In this document: one piece after another, positions 3,441-64,000 of the stretch
Layout of the letters: each line of letters starts with the position of its first letter
How positions within the stretch are numbered: the first letter of the stretch is position 1
Assembly (NCBI GenBank): GCA_014799685.1
Contig: JAAVHN010000018.1
Location: 85,857 to 149,856 of the forward strand
DNA: 64,000 nucleotides
Source: Subdoligranulum sp.
GTDB taxonomy: Bacteria > Bacillota > Clostridia > Oscillospirales > Ruminococcaceae
Direction: 5' to 3'
Made by a program: the position numbers and the translations under genes
Notes under the pieces: model-generated
Told to the model about the DNA's origin: nothing
Seen by the model: only the letters and a program-made list of their open reading frames with translations
Database searches by the model: none

Positions 3441-3870
3441 ATTCCCGCTCCCCTTCCGCGCCGTCCGCCGGGCAATGCTTCTGGCGTATTTGCCGCACCA
3501 TGCGCCACACACCGTTTTCAGGCACCCAGAGCGTATGGAGCGTCTCCCATGTGCCGCCGGCATCCTGCCGCGCAGCATCTGCAGCCAGTGTCCCGCCTCC
3601 GGGCCCGGGTAAAACACGCAGGCTGTACCGCCAGCCGTCCGGTGCGTCGGCTGTCAGCGCGCGCAGCTGCCGCTCCACGGCGCAAAGCTCCGGCAGCGGC
3701 GGCGGCTGCAAAACCATATCGCCGCACAGCAGCAAAACAAGCGCCAGCGCCGCCGTACAGCAAGCCATCCGCCGTACCCGCTTTGGCGCCGCCGCACTGC
3801 ACACCGTCCGCTGCATCCGCTGCAATGCCGCCGCGCAGTATCTCGCCCACCGCTTCGCGACCCCTCGCAT
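3439..3870 (-). CDS. hypothetical small secreted or membrane-anchored protein
   Basis: Frame of ORF 3439-3903. ATG 3870 is preceded by TGGGGGGA. Basic N-terminus then hydrophobic MACCTAALALVLLLCG. High GC3. No recognised family, and several competing GC-artefact ORFs overlap it. Confidence 0.4.
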   Translation of the reverse strand: MRGVAKRWARYCAAALQRMQRTVCSAAAPKRVRRMACCTAALALVLLLCGDMVLQPPPLPELCAVERQLRALTADAPDGWRYSLRVLPGPGGGTLAADAARQDAGGTWETLHTLWVPENGVWRMVRQIRQKHCPADGAEGERE

Positions 3871-4143
3871 GCGATCCCCCCATTCCAGACCCGTTCCGTC
3901 CACTCTGCATACTTCTTATAGATTATACTCAATATATTTAGTATAGTCAATGATTTGAGTATGGTAAAGTGAAGAAAAGCCGGAAGGGCTGCGCGTATCA
4001 CAGACGTGCTGCACCGCAGGCGCGCTGTTCGACAGACACGCCGTACAGCAAGTCGTGCCATACAGGCAGGCGTGCCGCGCTGCCGCTGTGCCGCGGGCGG
4101 GCAGCTGCCCTTCCGGGATGTCCGGTGGGAAGAGGTGGCGCGT

Positions 4144-4350
4144 GTGATCAGCTATGATCCGTTTTACCGCACGCTGTACAAAAAGAACATCACAGAATAC
4201 CAACTCATCTTCAAGCACGGCGTTTCGGCCAATACGCTGCACCGCATGAAGCACGGCGAGACCATCACGCTGAAAACGCTGGATACGCTGTGCTTTATTC
4301 TCGATTGCCCCGTATCCGATGTGATCGAATACCGGCGGGATGCCGAATAA
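4144..4350 (+). CDS. XRE/Cro-type helix-turn-helix transcriptional regulator (about 68 aa)
   Basis: C-terminal part of ORF 4006-4350: VISYDPFYRTLYKKNITEYQLIFKHGVSANTLHRMKHGETITLKTLDTLCFILDCPVSDVIEY, the short YozG-like HTH type. GTG 4144 follows GAAGAGGTGG; the upstream part of the ORF looks non-coding. Confidence 0.7.
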   Translation: MISYDPFYRTLYKKNITEYQLIFKHGVSANTLHRMKHGETITLKTLDTLCFILDCPVSDVIEYRRDAE

Positions 4351-4406
4351 CAGCCGGCCTTTGCCCTTTGGCACACAAAAGCAGCCCCCCTTCTGCGATT
4401 TTGCGC

Positions 4407-4460
4407 AAAAAACGGCGACCGCCAATCCCCTGTTCGGGGGTAAGGCAGCCGCCGTTTTTT
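4407..4460. terminator. bidirectional terminator between the convergent XRE gene and proS
   Basis: AAAAAACGGCGACCGCC ... GGCAGCCGCCGTTTTTT, an imperfect long stem with an inner CCCC/GGGG hairpin. There are A-runs on the 5' side and T-runs on the 3' side. Confidence 0.5.
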
Positions 4461-4537
4461 ACTTCATAATGCACGATCCGTAATGGATGGAACCGCGGAC
4501 GCATACGAAAGCGTGAAATTTTTATAAAAGCACCCGT

Positions 4538-5974
4538 TCAATACGCCTTGCCCCACACCACCATCGTCCTGGCGGGCTTGCCGCAGCAGGGGCATACGTC
4601 GGAGAGCTTTTCCTGCTCGAACGGCATGTTGCGGCTCGTCAGCCCGGCCTTTTCCTTCATCATTTCCTCGCAGGCAAGATCCCCGCACCACATGGTTTTG
4701 ATGTAGCCGTTCTCGCCCGCCGCAAGTTTTTGCACCTCGTCCATCGTTGTGGCCGTCCAGGTGCGCTTGGCGCGGTTTTCGGCGGCGCGGCCATACAGGT
4801 TTTTGGCCAGCGCGTCCAGCAGCGCGGGCACGGCCGTCTCTAACTCATCCCACTTGACGAACGATTTTTCACGCGTGTCGCGGCGCACCAGCACGCACTG
4901 CTCCTTTTCGATGTCCTTCGGGCCCACCTCCAGGCGCAGGGGCACGCCCTTCATCTCCCACTGGGCAAATTTCCAGCCGGGGCTGTTGTCGCTGCCGTCC
5001 ACCTTCACGCGCACGAATTTCGCAAGCTTTTCGCGCAGCTCCTCGGCCTTTTCCAGCACGCCGGGCTTGTGCGCGGCCACGGGCACGATCACCACCTGGA
5101 TGGGCGCGACGGCGGGCGGCAAAATCAGGCCTTCGTCGTCGCCGTGCGTCATGATGATGGCGCCGATCAGGCGCGTGCTGGCGCCCCAGCTCGTCTGGAA
5201 CGGATACTGCAGCGTATTGTCGCGCCCGGCGAACTGCACGCCGAACGCGCGCGAGAAGCCGTCGCCGAAATAGTGGCTGGTGCCGCTCTGCAGCGCCTTG
5301 CCGTCGTGCATCATGGCTTCGATGGAATAGGTGGCCTCTGCGCCCGCAAACTTTTCCTTCTCGGTCTTCTTGCCCTTCAGCACGGGGATGCACAGATCCT
5401 TTTCGCAGAAATCGGCATATTCCTCCAACTGGCGCTCGGTCTCGGCGATGGCCTCTTCGGCTGTTTCGTGGATGGTGTGCCCCTCCTGCCACAGGAATTC
5501 GCGCGAGCGCAGGAACGGACGCGTCGTTTTTTCCCAGCGCACCACGCTGCACCACTGGTTGTACTTCATGGGCAGGTCGCGGTACGAGTGCAGCACGTGC
5601 GCAAAGTGGTCGCAGAACAGCGTCTCGCTGGTGGGGCGCACGCACAGCCGGTCTTCCAGCTGCTCGGAACCGCCCATCGTCACCCACGCCACCTCGGGCG
5701 CAAAGCCCTCCACGTGGTCCTTCTCCTTTTGCAGCAGGCTCTCCGGGATCAGAAGCGGCATCGAGACGTTTTCATGGCCGGTGGCCTTAAAGCGCGCGTC
5801 CATCAGATGCATGATGTTCTCCCAGATGGCGTAGCCGTACGGCCGCAGGATCACAAAGCCTTTCACGGTGGAATAATCCACGAGCTCCGCTTTCAAACAG
5901 ATATCGGTATACCACTGGGTAAAATCCTCGTTGATGGGGGTGATGGCCTCCACTAACTTTTTGTTTTCGCTCAT
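4538..5974 (-). CDS. proS: proline--tRNA ligase (archaeal/eukaryotic-like type lacking the INS editing domain)
   Basis: 478 aa: [35 protein letters not shown]...RPTSETLF...FLWQEGHT... and a C-terminal CPCCGKPA zinc motif, the full-length class II ProRS pattern. Confidence 0.95.
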
Positions 5975-6124
5975 AATTTTCTACTCCCTTTCTTTCCCTT
6001 TCCCGCTGCAAAGCATCTGCCCACTGTGCCCGTGGCAGCACATCAAATTGTTGAGGAATGATTTCCGAAAGATGCATCCTGAACAGACATTCCTTGAAAT
6101 ACGCCCCAACCGCCCGATAATCTC

Positions 6125-6158
6125 AAAAAAGCCCCCACGCGAACCGCCTGGGGGCTTT
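6125..6158 (-). terminator. rho-independent terminator after acpP
   Basis: Minus strand reads AAAGCCCCCAGGCGGTTCGCGTGGGGGCTTTTTTGAG. Confidence 0.7.
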
Positions 6159-6175
6159 GTCGTCTGCAAAATCCT

Positions 6176-6403
6176 TTAAGAATTTTCTTCGATGTAGCGG
6201 ACAACGTCACCGACCGTGCGGAAATTTTCGATCTGGTCGTCCGGAACCTCCATGTTGAATTCATCCTCGAGCGACATAACAAGGTCGACAAGATCCAGGC
6301 TGTCCGCCTCGAAATCCTCCATAATATCGGAGTCCATTGTGATGCTGTCTTCCTCCAGATCAAGCTGGTCGCAGATGATCTCACGGATACGTTCAAAGAC
6401 CAT
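6176..6403 (-). CDS. acpP: acyl carrier protein
   Basis: MVFERIREIICDQLDLEEDSITMDSDIMEDFEADSLDLVDLVMSLEDEFNMEVPDDQIENFRTVGDVVRYIEENS, with the DSLD phosphopantetheine-attachment motif. ATG 6403 follows GGAGGG. The upstream part of ORF 6176-6520 is a non-coding extension. Confidence 0.9.
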   Translation of the reverse strand: MVFERIREIICDQLDLEEDSITMDSDIMEDFEADSLDLVDLVMSLEDEFNMEVPDDQIENFRTVGDVVRYIEENS

Positions 6404-55062: not shown

Positions 55063-56547
55063 TTACGCAATGCCCTTTACATAAAACGCATAGCTTGCCG
55101 TGCCGCCGTAGCCGCCTGCGGTGTCCCACCGGGCGGTGACCTCGTAGATATAGCCGCCCGGCTTCACCTCAATGGCGTAACCGCCCCCGGCCGCGCTGCC
55201 CAAAACGCGCACCGTCTCGCCTTTGGCGGCGGTGTTGCCCCAATCCGCGTCGCTCCAGCAGCGCACGCGCACAATCTCGTCCGGCGCCGCGCCCTGCGGG
55301 AAGATTAGATCGAGCGTGCGGTCGTTCTCCATTTCCAGCGCGGGCGAGAGCTGCGCCTTACAGCTGAGCGGGTGCGCGCTGTCCGCCTCGGTATCCGCAA
55401 CCGTCCCGTCGGCGTTTTTGCTCTGCCACGAATAGCCGCCCTGCAGCGTGGTGTGGTTCATCCGGTCGAGCGTACCGATCACCGTCATCACAGGCGGCTG
55501 CTCCAATACCGTCACGGCCTCGCCGCTGCGCAGCAGATCGTTCGCGTATTGGTTCAGCGCCTCGCACGGCGCGTATTTGGTGCGGTAGCCCACGCCGTCA
55601 ATCACAAGGAACGGATTATACGCCATGACCTGCGTCTGCGCGCCATCTGCAAAGGTCAGCGTGAAGATCACGCCCTGCCCGCAGTATTCCGTATAAGAAT
55701 TGTCCCGGCTGTAGACGATCACATCCTGCAAAAGCCCGGCCAGTTCTTCTATATCCGGAATTTCCAGCGTGGTATCGGGCGGCGCCAGGCACACCGTAGC
55801 GAATGTGATCTCGTCCGCGCTCAGCGCCCGGAACGGTTTGCCGCCGTAGGTGACCGGGAATTTTTTCCGGCTTGGCGCATCCCCTCCGGCCGCGCTGAAC
55901 GCGCCGTCGCCGTCCTCAGCGGGGGAGGGCGCCGGAACATCCTGGTTTTCCATCGAACCGGCTTCATACAGTGATTCCTCCGTCACGCTGTCGCGCGGGC
56001 TGGCTTCGCCCGAGGGCGCCCCTGCGGGCGCATCCGGCGCGCCGACGTCCATTGTTTCGGCCGTATCGCACGCCGCGGGCGCAGTGTCTGCGGGCGCGCA
56101 GCTATCCGCACCCGCCGCCGCGCCCTCCATCTGCAGCGCCATATCGCTGTTGTTGCCGGCCCCGCAGCCGCGCAGCGTCGTCATGGGCAGGATCGCCAGC
56201 ATGGCCATTGCCGCAATGGGCAGCGCGGCGCGGCGCAGGTGCACGGCAAGCGGCACAGGTTTTTGGGCCGTCGTATTTTTTGCGGATGCCTTTTTGGCAA
56301 GTGCATTTTTTGTGGGTGCGCACCCTGTCCCGGCAGACACAGGAACAGGCGCATCAGCAGAGGCAGGCGTACCGGCAGATGCGGGTGCAGGAGCAGCGGC
56401 GGATACAGGATCCGCCGGGCCGCCGAACCCGGCCCGGCCCTCCCGCTGCTGCCGTTCCAGCGCGTGCATCTTTTCCAGCGTCTCGGCCTTCCACGCCTCG
56501 CTGGGGGCGAGCTTGCCGAATGCAGAAATGTAATCGTCCTTATACAT
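55063..56547 (-). CDS. putative anti-sigma factor: single-pass membrane protein with a large uncharacterised extracytoplasmic domain
   Basis: MYKDDYISAFGKLAPSEAWKAETLEKMHALE (short cytoplasmic N-terminus), Ala/Pro-rich linker, TM (AALPIAAMAMLAILPM), then a roughly 330-aa C-terminal domain. The start overlaps the stop of the ECF sigma gene (ATGTATAA). Confidence 0.6.
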   Translation of the reverse strand: MYKDDYISAFGKLAPSEAWKAETLEKMHALERQQREGRAGFGGPADPVSAAAPAPASAGTPASADAPVPVSAGTGCAPTKNALAKKASAKNTTAQKPVPLAVHLRRAALPIAAMAMLAILPMTTLRGCGAGNNSDMALQMEGAAAGADSCAPADTAPAACDTAETMDVGAPDAPAGAPSGEASPRDSVTEESLYEAGSMENQDVPAPSPAEDGDGAFSAAGGDAPSRKKFPVTYGGKPFRALSADEITFATVCLAPPDTTLEIPDIEELAGLLQDVIVYSRDNSYTEYCGQGVIFTLTFADGAQTQVMAYNPFLVIDGVGYRTKYAPCEALNQYANDLLRSGEAVTVLEQPPVMTVIGTLDRMNHTTLQGGYSWQSKNADGTVADTEADSAHPLSCKAQLSPALEMENDRTLDLIFPQGAAPDEIVRVRCWSDADWGNTAAKGETVRVLGSAAGGGYAIEVKPGGYIYEVTARWDTAGGYGGTASYAFYVKGIA

Positions 56548-57031
56548 CGTCAAACTCCCCTTTCAAGGCGGTTTTCAGCAGCTTGCGGGCGCGCGCCAAC
56601 TGGGAGAGCACGGTATTCTGCGGCATCTCCAGCAGCGCGGCGATCTCGCCGGTGGCGTAGCCCTCGATATAATATAAGTAGATCACCTGCCGGTATTTTT
56701 TCGGCAGGCGGTTCACGGCGTCCACTACGGCCGTCTCCGCCGGGGTGAACGGCGTATCGGGGAAATCCTCGGTAAGGCCCGTGGTTTTGCGCTGCCACGC
56801 GCTGCGAAAAAAGCTTTTGCAGCGGTTCGCCGTCACGCGCAGCAGCCACGCCTTCTCGTGCGCGGCGCTCTCGAACACGGGCTTCGCGCGGACATAGCTG
56901 AGGAACACCTCCTGCGCAATATCCTCGGCGTCGGCGCGGTTTTTCACCATGGCGTAGGCGGCGGAAAACACCGTTCCCGCATAGCGCTCCAAAATCTGCT
57001 CGGCGCTTGTACAAACGGCTGCTTCGCCCAT
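56540..57031 (-). CDS. ECF-type RNA polymerase sigma-70 family factor
   Basis: MGEAAVCTSAEQILERYAGTVFSAAYAMVKNRADAEDIAQEVFLSY (region 2) ...LPKKYRQVIYLYYIEGYATGEIAALLEMPQNTVLSQLARARKLLK (region 4). ATG 57031 follows GGAGAGGGGG. Confidence 0.88.
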   Translation of the reverse strand: MGEAAVCTSAEQILERYAGTVFSAAYAMVKNRADAEDIAQEVFLSYVRAKPVFESAAHEKAWLLRVTANRCKSFFRSAWQRKTTGLTEDFPDTPFTPAETAVVDAVNRLPKKYRQVIYLYYIEGYATGEIAALLEMPQNTVLSQLARARKLLKTALKGEFDDV

Positions 57032-57349
57032 CGCGTTTCCCCCTCTCCGTGAAGATTTTCTTTCTGTTTTTGTGAAGTGATAAAGGAACCTCTGAATAAA
57101 TCGCCGCGCGCATCTCGACGTCAAATTTCCCGCCTGTCTTTGCCCCAAAAAAGCGGCGGTACCGGAAGGCTGGGAGCCTGCCTGCGCGGCAAAAACCGAA
57201 AGCCTGCCTGCACATCCGGAGCAGCTTTGTTTTTTGCCAGGGCCGTCCCAAAGCCCGGCGCCCGCTTTGGCGAAACTCCGGATATCCTTTACACGCTCCA
57301 CAAATACAAATTATTGCACACACGGCAAAATTTTGCAAATCGGTTCCAT

Positions 57350-57380
57350 GAAAAAAGGGCCGGATCATCCAGCCCTTTTC
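57350..57380 (-). terminator. rho-independent terminator of the yhfC...ybjQ operon
   Basis: Minus strand reads AAAGGGCTGGATGATCCGGCCCTTTTTTCATGG, about 105 nt downstream of the ybjQ-like stop. Confidence 0.65.
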
Positions 57381-57486
57381 TGCGGTTCCCGCAATATTCC
57401 GCCACGGTCTTTCCGTCTGCCCGCAGCATCTTCGCGATATCCCCCGCGATTGTTCCGTTTATCCGCCGCACCCCTGCACCGGTGTG

Positions 57487-57798
57487 TTACCGATAGCGCA
57501 CCGCCGTGCCGTAGGCGATCACCTCGGCCGCGCCCTGCATCACCGAGGACGACCCGTAGCGCATGTTGACAACCGCGTCCGCACCCAGCGCCTCGGCCTC
57601 GTCCACCATGCGCTTGGTGGCGATCTGGCGCGCCTCGATGAGCATCTCGGTATACCCGACGATCTCGCCGCCCACGAGCGTTTTCATGCCGGCCATAAAG
57701 TCTTTGCCAAAGTTTTTCGATTGCACCACCGTCCCCTTTACGATTCCGAGCGCCTCGATCTCTTTGCCGGGAATGTGGTCAATATTGAGCAGCAGCAT
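57487..57798 (-). CDS. YbjQ family (UPF0145, putative heavy-metal-binding domain) protein
   Basis: MLLLNIDHIPGKEIEALGIVKGTVVQSKNFGKDFMAGMKTLVGGEIVGYTEMLIEARQIATKRMVDEAEALGADAVVNMRYGSSSVMQGAAEVIAYGTAV. ATG 57798 follows GGAGGAG. Confidence 0.88.
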   Translation of the reverse strand: MLLLNIDHIPGKEIEALGIVKGTVVQSKNFGKDFMAGMKTLVGGEIVGYTEMLIEARQIATKRMVDEAEALGADAVVNMRYGSSSVMQGAAEVIAYGTAVRYR

Positions 57799-58144
57799 CT
57801 TCTTCTCCTCCTTCAATTTCTTTCAGTCTTGCTTTCAGGCTGAACCAGAGCGGGATCACGCTGACAAGTTCGAAGCCTGTGAGAACCAGTGTCAATTTTG
57901 CAGGAAAGCCTGCCGGATCGAGCCCGGCGCGCACCCAGAGCAGCAGGCCTGCCGCCGCAAGATGCATCGCCGTGAACAGCACGGCGCTTTGGATGGCACT
58001 TTTACGACGCCCCTTCTTGCGGTCTGCAGCTGTGCAATCTGCGCATGCACGATCCGCGGCCGTGCATCCCTCGACCGTCTGGTCTGTAACCATTCGATCC
58101 GCGGCCGTTCGCTCCGCGCCGCTTTCAGTATTTTTTGGCTTCAT
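57779..58144 (-). CDS. small 2-TM membrane protein, paralog B of the MerR C-terminal tail module
   Basis: MKPKNTESGAERTAADR..., basic patch (KKGRRKS), two TM helices, and the tail LKARLKEIEGGEEDAAAQY. ATG 58144 follows AAGGAGAAGAGG, which lies inside the preceding gene. Confidence 0.6.
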   Translation of the reverse strand: MKPKNTESGAERTAADRMVTDQTVEGCTAADRACADCTAADRKKGRRKSAIQSAVLFTAMHLAAAGLLLWVRAGLDPAGFPAKLTLVLTGFELVSVIPLWFSLKARLKEIEGGEEDAAAQY

Positions 58145-58388
58145 CCTCTTCTCCTTTGTCAATCTCGCGCAGGCGCTGGAACAGCACGATCACAACGCCC
58201 ACGGCAATGGCAATGCCCACGAGCAACACCGGCAGCATCATCAGCAGAACGGGCCGCGTCTCTTCCCCAAGCTCCCGCAGCGCGGCTGCCGGGGCGCCGA
58301 AATACAGCGCCAGGAACACCACAACCACCACCGCCGCCAGAGCGGCCGCACGCTTTTTCTTTCCTTTGTCAGTACCGTTTTGCATCAT
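58125..58388 (-). CDS. small 2-TM membrane protein, paralog A of the MerR C-terminal tail module
   Basis: MMQNGTDKGKKKRAAALAAVVVVVFLALYFGAPAAALRELGEETRPVLLMMLPVLLVGIAIAVGVVIVLFQRLREIDKGEEDEAKKY. The start ATG 58388/58385 lies inside the 3' end of the MerR gene, after GGGGGAG. Confidence 0.6.
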   Translation of the reverse strand: MMQNGTDKGKKKRAAALAAVVVVVFLALYFGAPAAALRELGEETRPVLLMMLPVLLVGIAIAVGVVIVLFQRLREIDKGEEDEAKKY

Positions 58389-59019
58389 CGATCTCCCCCT
58401 TTCCGATTTCCCGGATGCGCAGCACCAGCGCATACACAACGCCCACGATCATCAGCGCCGGAACGGCGATGGTCACTGCGACCAGCGGCAGGGGCGGCAC
58501 CTCCTCCGGCTCCGTCAAAACGGCCCACAGAAACAGGCCAATCGCTCCCGCCATCAGCGCCACGAACACCACCGTCACCACGACGGGCGCCACATAGCGC
58601 GTGCGGACATCCCGCTTTTGCTGGTCGTGGAACGTCGTGCCGGCGCGCTCGAGCGATTCCACCTCCTGCAGGAAGCCCTCCGCGTCCAGCTCGGAAAGCG
58701 GCACCTCGCACGTTTGCAAAAGGCCGCACAAGCGCACCGCCTCGTCCAGATTGCGCCGCTCGCGTTCCAGCGTTACAAGGTGGCGGCGCAGCCCGTCGCC
58801 GACGGTCTGCGTGCCCTCGCGCATGCGGCGGATCTCCTCGATGGGCACGCCCAACTTGCGCAGCAGCTTGATGCGCCGCAGCGTGGCCACCTCGGCCTCG
58901 CCGTAATCCCGGTAGCCGTTTTCGCTGTTGCGGCCGGGCGCAAGCAGGCCCTTCTCCTCGTAAAAGCGGATATTCTTTTTGGTGATGCCGACAAGCGCCT
59001 CCACCTCGTTGATCTTCAT
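58369..59019 (-). CDS. MerR family transcriptional regulator fused to a C-terminal 2-TM membrane domain
   Basis: MKINEVEALVGITKKNIRFYEEKGLLAPGRNSENGYRDYGEAEVATLRRIKLLRKLGVPIEEI (MerR HTH), a coiled-coil dimerisation helix, then RYVAPVVVTVVFVALMAGAIGLFLWAV...LPLVAVTIAVPALMIVGVVYALVLRIREIGKGEIDDAKRY. ATG 59019 follows GGAAGGAGG. Confidence 0.85.
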   Translation of the reverse strand: MKINEVEALVGITKKNIRFYEEKGLLAPGRNSENGYRDYGEAEVATLRRIKLLRKLGVPIEEIRRMREGTQTVGDGLRRHLVTLERERRNLDEAVRLCGLLQTCEVPLSELDAEGFLQEVESLERAGTTFHDQQKRDVRTRYVAPVVVTVVFVALMAGAIGLFLWAVLTEPEEVPPLPLVAVTIAVPALMIVGVVYALVLRIREIGKGEIDDAKRY

Positions 59020-59067
59020 TGCGCCGCCTCCTTCCCTGCACAAAATTCCCGGAACAGCGTCCCGGCT

Positions 59068-59256
59068 TTAGAAAAGATTGCATATGACCACAATGATCAG
59101 GATAACAGCCGCATGCAATATCCACGTCCATACATTCCCAAAATTCATTGTATAGCCAAGCCCGCTGCGCGGCCGTTTGACAATGATCCTCTTATCACCC
59201 CGGTTGAAATAGATCCTTCCGGTGATCCAGCCGTCATTCTGATTTGTTGGTTTCAT
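59068..59256 (-). CDS. DUF5808-like small membrane protein
   Basis: MKPTNQNDGWITGRIYFNRGDKRIIVKRPRSGLGYTMNFGNVWTWILHAAVILIIVVICNLF. The FY.N..D.R..V.K..G.G.T.NF pattern matches my recollection of DUF5808. ATG 59256 lies 9 nt after GAAGGTG. Confidence 0.6.
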   Translation of the reverse strand: MKPTNQNDGWITGRIYFNRGDKRIIVKRPRSGLGYTMNFGNVWTWILHAAVILIIVVICNLF

Positions 59257-59286
59257 AGCGCTCTGCACCTTCTGAAAAGGGAGTTA

Positions 59287-60075
59287 TTATTCCGGCTTCC
59301 CCAAAGTCTCCGGCAATTTCTTATAGACCCCCGCCGCGTACCACACCGCCAGCGCCGCAAGGGCTGCCGCCAGAAGCTCCGTCACGATGATCGGGAAAAA
59401 CGCGTTGCTCACCACCGCGCAGAAATCGACTGCGGCATGCATCAGCACCGCCGCAAAAAACAGGCCGCGCTTTCCGGGCTGCGTCTCAGAAGCGAACACC
59501 AGCACCGAGAGCGCCATGTGCAGCGCCATCGCGGAAATGCGCTCGAAGCCGGCCCACAGGAAGGTGGCGGCCGGGATCGCTCTCAGCTGCTCCACGGCGG
59601 CCAGCAACTCCTGCGGCCGCGCTCCGCCCGCGCCCGCCATCGTCATCAGTTCGCCTGAATTTGCCATCGACAGCAGCACAAGGTTGGAGATGTACGTCAC
59701 CGAGAGCAGCAGCGCGGCCTCGCACCCGCCGTGCCCGATGCCGTAGCCGAGCGCCGTCACGCGCGTGCGGTGCTTTCTTAAAATAAACCGGAACGCCACA
59801 CGCCGCCCCGTCTCTTCAAAAATACCCGCCGCAAGCCCGCCGTACAGGCCGTACAGCCAGATATTGCTCTGGAGCATCGCGCCCAGCGGCGTGCGGAGCA
59901 GCACCACATTGTGCATGGCCGATTCCGCCACCATCGCAAACAGGAAAAAGATCCCCGCGCCCACAAAGAAATCCAGCCAGCTGCCGCCGCGCTTTTTCAA
60001 AAACACCATCACCGCAAACGGCAGGGTGAGAAACAGCGCCGCAAGGCCGCCCATCATGAGAGTTGTTGCCGTCAT
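59287..60075 (-). CDS. YhfC family intramembrane metalloprotease (DUF2324)
   Basis: 262 aa, polytopic. LYGGLAAGIFEETGRRVAFRFIL and GYGIGHGGCEA closely match the conserved EE...R and GHGG motifs of Bacillus YhfC. RBS GGAGAGGGAG. Confidence 0.85.
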   Translation of the reverse strand: MTATTLMMGGLAALFLTLPFAVMVFLKKRGGSWLDFFVGAGIFFLFAMVAESAMHNVVLLRTPLGAMLQSNIWLYGLYGGLAAGIFEETGRRVAFRFILRKHRTRVTALGYGIGHGGCEAALLLSVTYISNLVLLSMANSGELMTMAGAGGARPQELLAAVEQLRAIPAATFLWAGFERISAMALHMALSVLVFASETQPGKRGLFFAAVLMHAAVDFCAVVSNAFFPIIVTELLAAALAALAVWYAAGVYKKLPETLGKPE

Positions 60076-60219
60076 GTTATTCGCTCCCTCTCCGAAACAT
60101 GGAACTCTGACACAGAAGCGCCATACCGGGACACCGTGCCGGTACGGGACTCGGCTGCCTACGCGTGTATTTCCGCTTTGGCCGTGCGCCGCCCTGCCGC
60201 GTTCGGTTTTACTGCCTCT

Positions 60220-60250
60220 ATTCTATACTTTCCAGCAGGGGGAAGGTCAA
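60220..60250 (-). promoter_or_regulatory. MerR-type promoter (19-bp spacer with internal dyad) of the yhfC...ybjQ operon
   Basis: Minus strand reads TTGACC (60245-60250), 19 nt (TTCCCCCTGCTGGAAAGTA), TAGAAT (60220-60225). The dyad ACCTTCC-N7-GGAAAGT matches at 6 of 7 positions and spans the -35 and spacer. It lies about 145 nt upstream of yhfC. Confidence 0.5.
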
Positions 60251-60281
60251 GAGGGGACGGAAAAATTTTTCTTTGCGGCAG

Positions 60282-60316
60282 ACAAAACCGGCAAATTTCG
60301 TCCAAAAATTTGCCGG
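60282..60316 (-). terminator. rho-independent terminator after the MATE gene
   Basis: Minus strand reads CCGGCAAATTT-TTGGACG-AAATTTGCCGG followed by TTTTGTC. Confidence 0.7.
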
Positions 60317-60337
60317 CATTGCGCTTATTGATCCGCC

Positions 60338-61913: not shown

Positions 61914-63533
61914 CTATAAGGTCTGCAAGATCTGCGCCCCGCGGCTGCACACCCAGTGCCAGAGAGCTGCGGCGGCGAGCAGCAGCAGCGCCGCAGCCAG
62001 CGCGCAGAAGCCGGCAAAGCCCAGCGCACGGCCGCCCACGGCCCACAGCAGCGCGCCCAGCCCCACGGCGAGCATGCCGCCGAAGATGCCCACCGCGCTG
62101 GCTGCCGATTGCTTCACAATGATCGTATCGTTGTCGCAGTCCATACGGGGCAGCAGCAGGTTTACCGTCAGGCCATACACCGGCGTAAACAGCCCGAAGC
62201 ACATGCAGAGGAGCAGCAACCCCAGCGCATCCGCCGCATCCGGTGCATAGCCGGCCCACAGCAGCACCACGCTCACCGCCGCCGGAACGGCGGACATCAG
62301 CACATTCAGCAGCGCCTTTGCGCCGAACAGCGCGCGGGGCGGGACGGGCGCTTCCTTTAAGATCCAGAGCGTTTTGCCTTCCAGGCTGATGGATACGCAC
62401 GCGGTGTTGATCATTGCCTGCACCGTGCAGAGGAGCAGCGCCGCCATCGGCAGTGCCGCCCCGACGCCGCCGAGCTGGGCCAGCACCGGCAGCACCTGCC
62501 CGCGCATGACAAGCGCATACACCGCCATGCCCAAAAGCATCACCGCGCCAACCCCGGTGTTCATCACATAGATCGTCGTGCCGAAATAGCGGCGGCATTC
62601 CTTGGCGAACAGCGCCGCAAACATGCCGCTCGTTTTTACCCCGCGCAGCTTGTAATCGCTGCGCAGCACATGGCTCGCAAGGCGCGAGAGGATCTTTTTA
62701 TACTGCGTGCCGATGGCCCAGACGAGCGCCAGAAACGGCAGCAGCGAAAGCAGAAGAAAGCCGCAAAGCCCCAGCGCGCACTGCGCCGCGCCGGCGCCCG
62801 CGAGGGCGTCCAGCAGCAGGCCGAACGGCAGCAGCCATGTGTGCAGCGTGCGCCGCATGCCGGCAAGATCGCGCAGCAGCATCTCCAGCGTGCGGTTCAC
62901 CTGCATGCTGCCCACCAGCACTATACAGACGAAGGCCATGCCCAGAACCGTGCCAACGGCGGCCTTGTGCCGCAGCCGGCCCGAGACATACGCGATGAGC
63001 CAGCCGCCCAGCAGCGCCAGCGCGGAGGGCAGCAGCGGCAAAAACGGGATGATGAGCAAAAGGCGCACACAGAACAGCGCCGCCTGCCCCGCCGGAAGCC
63101 CCGCGCACAGCAGATAGCAGACGCCCGTGGGCGCCATCCACAGCCCGCAGAAGACCAGATTTTCCAGATACAGCGCCAGCACCTTGCCCAGCACCACGGT
63201 AAACGCGGAGACCGGCAGCGTCAGCATGATGTCGTTATCCTTGCTGCCGAACACAAGGCCGCTCGCCGCGAAGATCGTAAGCAGCAGCGACATCATGCCC
63301 GCCATCATGGCCATCAGCGGCAGGGCCAGATCGACCGCGCCGGATTCTGCCAGCATCTGCGTGAGCACAAAGCTGTACGTGGCCGAGAGATACAGCGCCA
63401 AAAACGCCATCAGCGCCAGCGCGCCAAGGCCGCTTGCCGCCTTCTTTTTGCTTTTGCGCGCGCCGCTCTGGAACGAAAACGCCCGCAGCATCAGGCGGAA
63501 ATTTAATTTTAGCAAAACCCACAGTTTATACAT
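61914..63533 (-). CDS. polytopic permease of a putative ABC exporter (ABC-2-like)
   Basis: MYKLWVLLKLNFRLMLRAFSFQSGARKSKKKAASGLGALALMAFLALYL... About 539 aa with many TM helices, immediately downstream of an ABC ATPase. ATG 63533 follows AGAGGG. The N-terminal extension in ORF 61914-63656 reads through the upstream repeats in another register. Confidence 0.75.
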   Translation of the reverse strand: MYKLWVLLKLNFRLMLRAFSFQSGARKSKKKAASGLGALALMAFLALYLSATYSFVLTQMLAESGAVDLALPLMAMMAGMMSLLLTIFAASGLVFGSKDNDIMLTLPVSAFTVVLGKVLALYLENLVFCGLWMAPTGVCYLLCAGLPAGQAALFCVRLLLIIPFLPLLPSALALLGGWLIAYVSGRLRHKAAVGTVLGMAFVCIVLVGSMQVNRTLEMLLRDLAGMRRTLHTWLLPFGLLLDALAGAGAAQCALGLCGFLLLSLLPFLALVWAIGTQYKKILSRLASHVLRSDYKLRGVKTSGMFAALFAKECRRYFGTTIYVMNTGVGAVMLLGMAVYALVMRGQVLPVLAQLGGVGAALPMAALLLCTVQAMINTACVSISLEGKTLWILKEAPVPPRALFGAKALLNVLMSAVPAAVSVVLLWAGYAPDAADALGLLLLCMCFGLFTPVYGLTVNLLLPRMDCDNDTIIVKQSAASAVGIFGGMLAVGLGALLWAVGGRALGFAGFCALAAALLLLAAAALWHWVCSRGAQILQTL

Positions 63534-63733
63534 ATATAACGCCCTCTTGTATCCATTTTTCAGCGCGGAGGATCGTATCTTTCTCCCACAGTTTATCCAT
63601 GCACAACGTCCTCTCGCGTCCATTTTCCGGCGCGGAAGAGCGTATGTTTTTTCCATAGTTTATTCATTTGCGCCGCCCTCTCGCATCCATTTTCAGCGCG
63701 GAGGAACATACCCCTTCCCATAAGCTCACGCAT
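63534..63733. repeat. three tandem 66-67-bp repeats duplicating the ATPase-stop / permease-start junction
   Basis: On the minus strand the units begin at ATGs 63733, 63667 and 63600, and the permease ATG at 63533 begins a fourth partial unit. Each unit carries GAGAGG/GGGAGG, 8-9 nt, then ATG-N-AAACTRTGG ... CTCCGCGCTGAAAATGGA... Confidence 0.9.
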
Positions 63734-64000
63734 GTCCGCCGCCCTCCCGTGCCAGCTCCAAAAACACCTGCTCCAGGCTCTCGTCGCCCACCACGGCGGC
63801 CGTATCGCCCATTTTCACAAGCTTTCCCTTCTGGACGATCGCGATGCGGTCGCACAGCTTTTCGGCCACCTCCAATACGTGGGTGGAGAAGATCACCGCG
63901 CCGCCCGCCTCGCACAGCTCGCGCAGAAAGCCCTTTAAAACAAACGCGGCCTGCGGATCCAGCCCGACGAACGGCTCGTCCAAAATCAGCAGCTTCGGCG
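63726..64000 (-). CDS. ABC transporter ATP-binding protein; 5' part lies outside the window
   Basis: The frame is open to the window edge: PKLLILDEPFVGLDPQAAFVLKGFLRELCEAGGAVIFSTHVLEVAEKLCDRIAIVQKGKLV, with Walker B, D-loop and H-switch. Confidence 0.88.
   Translation of the reverse strand, partial: PKLLILDEPFVGLDPQAAFVLKGFLRELCEAGGAVIFSTHVLEVAEKLCDRIAIVQKGKLVKMGDTAAVVGDESLEQVFLELAREGGGHA

Follow-up and report, generated by a model that had tools for sequence, protein, structure and literature searches.

Background

Promoters of the MerR type are switched by a regulator that remains bound to the DNA. Among the MerR activators, BmrR, Mta and TipA respond to hydrophobic drugs by activating efflux pumps and, in many cases, their own gene. 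BcrR of Enterococcus faecalis drives an ATP-binding cassette (ABC) exporter, and in the LiaI-LiaH and PspB/C-PspA systems, which are co-induced by a stress regulator, small membrane proteins anchor a soluble oligomer. ToxR and CadC are transmembrane regulators that act from the membrane (PMC10269533). Here we describe an operon in a stretch of 64,000 nucleotides (nt) from Subdoligranulum sp. (GenBank assembly GCA_014799685.1, contig JAAVHN010000018.1, positions 85,857 to 149,856 of the forward strand; "the window", by whose positions features are located below). It encodes a MerR protein predicted to end in two transmembrane (TM) helices and an acidic tail (MerR-2TM), two free copies of this membrane module (s1 and s2), a YbjQ/UPF0145 protein, the putative intramembrane protease YhfC and a mini-protein resembling DUF5808. 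We regard it as reasonably probable that this system is a membrane-integrated, self-regulating, CueR-like MerR one-component regulator with a partner module, and that YhfC and an ABC exporter are its outputs.

Literature searches returned no description of a membrane-bound MerR regulator and nothing functional on YbjQ/UPF0145 or YhfC. Both proteins are widespread and have solved or predicted folds, and here they are placed in a regulon with a readable operator. This would give YbjQ and YhfC their first regulatory context, in carriers that are abundant gut Oscillospiraceae.

The MerR-2TM protein

The gene for MerR-2TM (58369-59019; like all features of the operon it lies on the minus strand) encodes 216 amino acids (aa). 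The winged helix-turn-helix (HTH) at residues 9-76 matches MerR_1 (E=3e-21; PF13411, E=2.6e-21) and PF00376 (E=1.1e-11). A CueR-like winged HTH with its dimerisation helix makes up residues 1-102 and is followed by a juxtamembrane helix, TM1, TM2 and the acidic tail REIGKGEIDDAKRY. Hydropathy peaks at residues 146-164 and 182-200 (Kyte-Doolittle values of 2.6-2.8), and an AlphaFold2 (AF2) model with a mean confidence (pLDDT) of 88 has C-terminal helices at 133-169 and 177-207, a long dimerisation helix at 73-102 (pLDDT >90) and a disordered, low-confidence stretch comprising the last six residues. By hydropathy and AF2, then, a DNA-binding domain and membrane spans reside in one polypeptide, and the proposal of the first-pass annotation that this MerR protein is membrane-anchored is borne out at the level of prediction. 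Since the number of helices is even and the HTH is cytoplasmic, both termini would lie inside.

The closest sequence relative of the HTH is CueR, both among NCBIfam models and in the PDB, and the top structural matches returned by Foldseek are CadR and CueR, with PbrR also among the best and BmrR and TipA among the PDB or structural hits. MerR-2TM is not a CueR by the equivalog model TIGR02044, against which it scores 54 bits (cut-off 147.4) in a match confined to residues 9-74, and its sequence lacks the Cys112/Cys120 metal loop of CueR or an equivalent cysteine pair. The only invariant cysteine in 54 homologues down to 38% identity is C98 in the dimerisation helix; this residue, which is distinct from the metal ligands of CueR, could be a redox or metal contact.

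Conservation of the core

Full-length homologues of MerR-2TM with 56-79% identity are found in 80 species representatives, mostly Oscillospiraceae, and the genome collection contained 425 confirmed relatives in total. Among the carriers are Oscillibacter sp. PC13 and 1-3, Pseudoflavonifractor phocaeensis An858, Muriventricola aceti and Dysosmobacter. Neighbouring genes were counted from profile searches of all open reading frames (ORFs) in the 80 species loci, the denominators being the loci with enough flanking sequence. A ybjQ gene lies downstream of merR-2TM in 72 of 72 loci. Between the two there are two free small 2TM genes in 54 species, one in 11, none in 4, three in 2 and five in 1. 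The yhfC gene is adjacent in 21 of 71 loci and absent within 6 kb in the other 50, a count that covers the neighbourhood only. The DUF5808-like gene (59068-59256; 62 aa, with one predicted C-terminal TM helix) has matches in 0 of 86 related loci; it is present in the near relatives L088/L089 (96% MerR identity) and absent in L090 (79%). Against PF19124 its product scores 26.5 bits at a cut-off of 26.3, and it is classed as "weak" in the precomputed hits.

Since YbjQ is always present, yhfC is present in 21 of 71 loci and DUF5808 occurs in near relatives only, the core consists of MerR-2TM and YbjQ, usually with two free paralogues. Judged by these distributions, yhfC is accessory and the DUF5808 gene is a recent, lineage-specific insert. 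The linkage of yhfC and merR-2TM that had been expected in related genomes stands in part: it recurs, but it is missing from the neighbourhood in 50 of the loci. All-against-all clustering of the neighbouring ORFs revealed no further universal neighbour, with an output that was noisy because of spurious ORFs in high-GC sequence.

The operator

The promoter of the operon (60220-60250) has a -35 element TTGACC (60250-60245) and a -10 element TAGAAT (60225-60220) separated by a 19-bp spacer, which is spanned by the dyad ACCTTCCCCCTGCTGGAAAGT (60247-60227), of the form ACCTTCC-N7-GGAAGGT. The over-long spacer together with a dyad operator marks it, on sequence grounds, as a classical promoter of the MerR type. 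The operator is unique in the window, with 0.18 occurrences expected by chance, and the promoter is identical at 26 of 29 bases to the E. coli copA promoter, which carries the CueR operator; the E. coli site is found in 5419 of 5426 E. coli genomes.

In 76 of the 80 species, an operator promoter of this type stands within 150 nt (at about 50 nt) upstream of merR-2TM, and a comparison of the downstream bases showed that the -10 element TAnnnT is conserved in the 19-bp register only. A second copy of the operator precedes yhfC in 18 of 21 loci with yhfC, versus 0 of 50 loci without it. This arrangement, an operator before merR-2TM and another before yhfC, is what characterises a MerR activator that regulates itself and has yhfC in its regulon. 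In the clade of the window (the window, L005/L007 and L010) the merR-proximal operator is decayed or lost, and the yhfC promoter heads the whole operon.

Other palindromes lie in this region. One, AGCTTCCACCGTGGGGAAGGC, which many loci have at about 335 nt upstream of merR, was considered as an operator and rejected: it lies within a divergent ORF of about 400 aa, labelled mutY-like from sequence motifs alone, and its conservation is therefore attributed to coding. At about 100-125 nt upstream of merR-2TM, four loci without yhfC (L028, L037, L055 and L033) share the perfect palindrome ATGGTATGATTATACCAT, which overlaps the beginning of the divergent mutY-like ORF. A further five loci (L041, L056, L086, L065 and L005) carry a second, partly degenerate dyad with no good -35 and -10 elements, about 55 nt further upstream than the main dyad and about 100-120 nt from merR-2TM.

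The wider regulon

Upstream of the operon, beyond a MATE gene, the window ends in the genes of an ABC exporter (61914-63998, minus strand), consisting of a 580-aa ORF that is a permease of exporter type (61914-63656; E=4e-23) and the C-terminal 90 aa of a DrrA-type ATPase (63726-63998). Pfam and NCBIfam hold no model for this permease of about 530-580 aa. The contig L212, in which the ABC genes occupy 3541-6198, shares 6.9 kb with the window at 100% identity and extends beyond it. There, TTGACC-ACCTTCCCCTTACCGGACGGT-TATACAAT stands about 90 nt upstream of the ATPase; this promoter with the same operator (CTTGACCTTCCCCTTACCGGACGGTATACAAT) corresponds to a site about 570 nt past the end of the window. 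Given the identity of L212 to the window, this genome has two operator promoters 4.4 kb apart.

A metagenome scan with the exact operator pattern, from which the E. coli spacer was excluded, returned 120 contigs, mostly high-GC gut contigs. In about 50 of the 120, the first downstream gene encodes a DrrA-type ABC ATPase and the next one a permease of about 530 aa; in 26, the first gene is that of MerR-2TM. YhfC, a TetR-family protein, an NfeD-like protein, a secreted beta-lactamase-fold protein and an HlyD-family protein account for a few contigs each. Two contigs have a CopZ-like gene in this place and were taken to be true copper operators. Furthermore, L133 has a tight operon merR-2TM-ybjQ-abcA-abcP, and L134 has an operon merR-2TM-ybjQ-yhfC. 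From its sequence context, the ABC exporter is a probable member of the regulon.

That the operator is near-identical to the E. coli CueR site begs the question whether it is read by a different, soluble regulator of the CueR type, for example a copper or silver sensor, such that MerR-2TM would be a mere target or would bind other DNA. The CopZ-like genes behind 2 of the 120 metagenome operators agree with this, as does a CopA-type ATPase that adjoins the operons of some contigs with the ABC exporter. However, MerR-2TM brings its own HTH, which is closest to CueR, the site lies directly before merR-2TM in 76 of 80 species, and no extra regulator gene is seen where the exporter or yhfC joins the merR-2TM operon. 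Also, the pattern used for the scan left out the E. coli spacer, and its matches are mostly high-GC gut contigs. We therefore consider a soluble reader of this operator to be distinctly unlikely and return to MerR-2TM as its own regulator.

The 2TM-plus-tail module and its free copies

The two small genes s1 (58125-58388; 87 aa) and s2 (57779-58144; 121 aa) each encode two hydrophobic helices and a tail. The three modules of the window end in LRIREIGKGEIDDAKRY, LREIDKGEEDEAKKY and LKEIEGGEEDAAAQY, and these tails can be aligned, as had been claimed, with a common ending E-I-x-x-G-E-x-D/E-x-A-x-x-Y-stop. In most of the related loci, MerR-2TM and the majority of the small 2TM ORFs terminate in the motif E-I-x-x-G-E-x-[DE]-[DE]-A-x-x-Y-stop. 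Two to four ORFs end in the strict pattern in 71 of 87 loci, and at least one does in 86, far beyond chance; in MerR-2TM orthologues down to 38% identity the tail is nearly invariant. Profile comparisons confirmed that s1 and s2 are true paralogues of the 2TM-plus-tail module of MerR.

Within the operon, merR-2TM and s1, s1 and s2, and s2 and ybjQ overlap by exactly 20 nt in each case, and the tail codons (K/G-G-E and D/E-D/E-A) contain the ribosome-binding site GGAG and the start codon ATG of the following gene. The tail is kept, however, in loci in which the genes do not overlap and the embedded ATG is mutated (L022, L033, L037, L066 and L070), and it is therefore selected as protein and not solely as a ribosome-binding site.

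A profile of the 2TM module retrieved 1146 cluster representatives (E ≤ 1e-3) among 1.84 billion proteins, nearly all of them either free, with 78-95 aa, or fused to MerR, with about 216 aa; scans with Pfam and NCBIfam yielded no model above cut-off for the module. Apparent fusions to transketolase, GH25, a recombinase zinc ribbon and histidine phosphatase were set aside, since abrupt switches within these sequences make chimeric or frame-shifted gene calls likely.

Whether the small ORFs are unconstrained had been raised as a possible objection. Measured against the relative with 96% identity, the ratio of non-synonymous to synonymous substitution rates (dN/dS) is 0.07 for ybjQ, 0.09 for merR-2TM, 0.30 for the DUF5808 gene, 0.33 for yhfC, 0.41 for s1 and 0.49 for s2, and when more distant relatives are included it ranges over 0.06-0.09 for ybjQ, 0.22-0.39 for yhfC, 0.25-0.49 for s2 and 0.41-0.83 for s1. 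By this measure ybjQ is the most constrained gene of the operon. Outside the tail the small genes are indeed loosely constrained, but as ORFs they are kept in 80 species, where their hydropathy is the same and their tail invariant.

The N-terminus of s2 is a low-complexity extension with TAADR/GDRT-like repeats (58003-58144, minus strand). The protein has 121 aa here, 141 aa in the relative with 96% identity (L088:4876-5301) and about 86-91 aa elsewhere, such that the repeat tract is unstable.

YbjQ as the partner of the 2TM module

YbjQ (57487-57798; 103 aa) matches PF01906 over its full length (E=4e-37, profile positions 1-102 of 103), and its PDB homologues 1y2i, 1vr4 and 2gtc have five chains each. 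The assignment of YbjQ to the system, already made at first pass, is supported: it is an obligate partner in 72 of 72 loci, it is fused in frame to a 2TM module, and it forms a pair with a 2TM protein where MerR is absent. The fusions involve the last 2TM module and were found in one clade comprising six species loci (L064, L068, L072, L073, L083 and L084). With a 2TM-YbjQ fusion as query, all among the 120 clusters listed, which were drawn from NCBI, JGI, ENA and Logan assemblies, have 180-223 aa (mostly 190-196) and nearly all have 92-100% query coverage. The N-terminal half of the fusion is homologous to the free 2TM module (hhalign probability 95%, E=3e-8). In L217 (3940-4529) and L218, a 78-aa 2TM-tail gene and ybjQ overlap by 20 nt behind an ordinary promoter, TTGCAT-17 bp-TATAAT, with no MerR gene, and this pair is probably the ancestral cassette. 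From gene fusion and gene linkage we infer that the tail serves to dock YbjQ at the membrane; the low AF2 confidence in the last six residues of MerR-2TM fits a docking peptide.

YbjQ also bears on two other interpretations. One is that the system is a device for metal homeostasis, with YbjQ as a metal-binding subunit that replaces the lost metal loop of CueR. The fold and operator resembling those of CueR, CadR and PbrR, the Pfam label of YbjQ ("putative heavy-metal-binding") and the invariant Cys98 in the dimerisation helix all speak for it. Yet the score against the CueR equivalog (54 versus 147 bits) and the absent Cys112/Cys120 loop stand in its way, and YbjQ itself contains no cysteine and a single histidine that is not conserved. 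Nor are the proposed outputs, a protease and an ABC-2 type exporter, metal pumps, and we judge a role in metal homeostasis to be very unlikely.

The other interpretation holds that the 2TM proteins assemble with YbjQ into a membrane effector, a pore or holin-like, from which MerR-2TM borrowed its anchor, the tail being a non-functional product of tandem duplication and the embedded ribosome-binding site. It could point to the tail codons, which contain the following gene's GGAG and start codon, to one small 2TM homologue with a weak match to Phage_holin_3_6, and to the five chains with which YbjQ homologues crystallise, which make a 10-helix assembly conceivable. Against it count the conservation of the tail where the overlap and the ATG are gone, its near-invariance in MerR-2TM orthologues down to 38% identity, and the lack of PADLOC or phage signals. 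Of the interpretations discussed here, we give a pore-forming effector the least credence, and the tail is treated below as a functional part of the partner module.

YhfC and the question of proteolysis

YhfC (59287-60075; 262 aa) is classed as a CPBP-clan intramembrane metalloprotease (PF10086, E=7e-45). Its catalytic motifs are intact, with EETGRR at 87 (E87-E88-x3-R92), YGIGH at 111 (Y111-x3-H115) and HAAVD at 213 (H213-x3-D217), in line with the CPBP-family motifs EExxxR, [FY]xxxH and HxxxD/N.

Enzymes of this clan recur in the system, as YhfC in 21 of 71 loci and as an Rce1-like protein in its place in L216, so that a functional tie between the CPBP clan and the 2TM-tail proteins is likely. 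In L216 (68-1926), a different membrane-bound MerR with two TM helices and a C-terminal zinc ribbon is followed, behind a different promoter, by an Rce1-like CPBP protease (PF02517), a 78-aa 2TM-tail protein and a cut ORF overlapping it by 20 nt. Its gene content suggests a parallel version of the system, made from non-orthologous parts.

The first-pass annotation had assigned YhfC the part of a controller that releases or degrades MerR, read here as regulated intramembrane proteolysis that frees or destroys the DNA-binding half, with the free 2TM paralogues as decoy substrates. Several observations are compatible with it: the catalytic motifs, the position of yhfC beside merR-2TM in 21 of 71 species and within the operon in L134, the repeated recruitment of the clan suggested by the Rce1-like protease in L216, and a shared cytoplasmic tail near the membrane, where such enzymes act. 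However, in 50 of 71 species yhfC is missing within 6 kb and MerR-2TM, its tail and YbjQ are still conserved, and the operator that yhfC carries itself (18 of 21) places it downstream of the regulator and marks it as a regulated output. Tethered regulator and protease, in this count of neighbourhoods, do not co-occur obligately. Furthermore, since MerR activators work as bound dimers and stay on the DNA throughout switching, release from the membrane is not needed, and a freed CueR-like core without its sensor would most probably be stuck in a single state. The general premise that tethered regulators are typically under intramembrane proteolysis was also put too strongly, as ToxR, CadC and BcrR act from the membrane. 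Control of MerR-2TM through its release by YhfC is therefore unlikely in our view, and we prefer YhfC as an output of a regulator that stays in place.

As an output, YhfC may, speculatively, process or clear tail-bearing proteins as feedback. A more specific version would make the acidic, tyrosine-ended tail both a docking peptide for a YbjQ pentamer and a substrate of the CPBP-clan enzyme, be it YhfC or Rce1-like, such that C-terminal clipping sets the YbjQ load and switches the regulator. This would be a bacterial counterpart of C-terminal processing of the CAAX type. We grant it a slim chance; if true, it would amount to a new form of proteolytic feedback signalling and provide the first substrates and functions for YhfC and YbjQ.

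Operon boundaries and flanking features

Gene calls were based on a listing of ORFs, on Pfam and NCBIfam scans and on a re-reading of start sites, by which starts were slightly refined. All six minus-strand genes are present and run in the same direction between one promoter and one strong terminator, in agreement with the initial description. The intrinsic terminator (57379-57344) has a 14-bp stem and a U-run and folds with -26.6 kcal/mol (z=-3.44), which 0 of 200 shuffled sequences equalled. An internal terminator proposed by a pattern scan between the DUF5808 gene and merR was discarded, its fold being not significant (z=0.44), and the MATE gene upstream of the operon has its own terminator at 60317-60287. 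An Rfam scan of the operon, its 5′ leader and its 3′ end found no riboswitch or attenuator, and the leader folds no better than shuffled sequences. A match to PrrB/RsmZ between ybjQ and the terminator (57351-57486, minus strand) scores 18 bits at a gathering threshold of 44 (E=0.37) and is most likely due to chance.

A defence-system or phage origin was discounted, as PADLOC yielded one generic HTH match only. Beyond the terminator lie, at 55063-57034 on the minus strand, a sigma factor of the extracytoplasmic function (ECF) type and a putative anti-sigma factor of 496 aa rich in alanine and proline, with a promoter-like site at 57339-57310. This pair adjoins the operon also in L005 and L088 and does not do so in more distant species; having its own promoter and being a neighbour only in close relatives, it was rejected as part of the system. 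In the relative with 96% identity, a gene for a DHH/DHHA1 phosphoesterase (L088/L089:900-2456) lies between the MATE gene and yhfC, a gene that is absent from the corresponding interval of the window (60076-60337).

Model and comparison with known systems

In the mechanism that we favour, a dimer of MerR-2TM would remain in the membrane while seated on the operator promoters. A signal sensed in or at the membrane would turn these promoters on by the usual untwisting of DNA by MerR proteins, which would raise the levels of MerR-2TM itself, the small 2TM paralogues, YbjQ, YhfC and the exporter. Ancestrally, the unit would consist of a 2TM-tail protein and YbjQ, the latter likely pentameric and probably docked by the tail at the inner face of the membrane. 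Because it carries the same 2TM-tail module, MerR-2TM would be able to read the state of the 2TM-YbjQ complex, and the free 2TM paralogues would titrate or partner MerR-2TM and in this way provide feedback. In the lineage of the window, the merR-proximal promoter would have been lost, with yhfC and the inserted DUF5808 gene now heading a single transcript. The outputs, an ABC-2 type exporter and a CPBP protease, as well as HlyD, NfeD, TetR and beta-lactamase-fold proteins in other contigs, suggest a response to toxic compounds that are membrane-active or hydrophobic, or else to envelope stress, and candidate inducers are bile acids, bacteriocins, drugs and membrane damage.

Several observations fit this mechanism less well. 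No ligand site is obvious in the short extracellular loop of MerR-2TM. Evolution of the small 2TM genes is rapid, with a dN/dS for s1 of up to 0.83, and the 2TM-YbjQ fusions carry a linker in place of the tail. Many of the contigs with the ABC exporter are near-identical, stem from a few abundant gut species and are tied to MerR-2TM by the operator alone. Finally, these genomes could hold a separate soluble CueR-like regulator of the same specificity. If the membrane-built MerR regulator is nonetheless true, it would be a new sensor design in a very well studied family, with a regulon made up of the operator, the regulator, a family of membrane partners beyond the Pfam and NCBIfam models, and an ABC exporter.

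The closest comparison is with CueR at E. coli copA, with which MerR-2TM has in common the winged HTH, the long antiparallel dimerisation helix, a near-identical operator and the 19-bp spacer. It differs from CueR in having no metal loop or cysteine pair and in carrying, at the effector end, a 2TM hairpin and an acidic tail. In addition, it is proposed to regulate itself, is linked to YbjQ and lies far below the cut-off of the CueR equivalog. The outputs of the MerR-2TM system, in turn, resemble those of the multidrug MerR regulators. BmrR, Mta and TipA, however, are soluble and have GyrI-like or TipAS ligand domains, whereas the sensor of MerR-2TM would lie in the membrane.

BcrR, ToxR and CadC are likewise DNA-binding proteins that sense or activate from the membrane and do so without a partner kinase, but they have DNA-binding folds of the XRE or OmpR type and neither free paralogous membrane modules nor YbjQ. 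With RsiW/PrsW/RasP and TcpP/YaeL the system shares a membrane-tethered transcription component that is encoded near an intramembrane protease. In contrast to these systems, the protease gene adjoins the regulator gene here in only about 30% of species and itself stands under the operator, no site-1 protease is present, and release is not needed. The 2TM-tail proteins and YbjQ also parallel the pairing of anchor and oligomer in LiaI-LiaH and PspB/C-PspA, to which they have no sequence relationship, with the difference that in the MerR-2TM system the regulator itself holds a copy of the anchor module.

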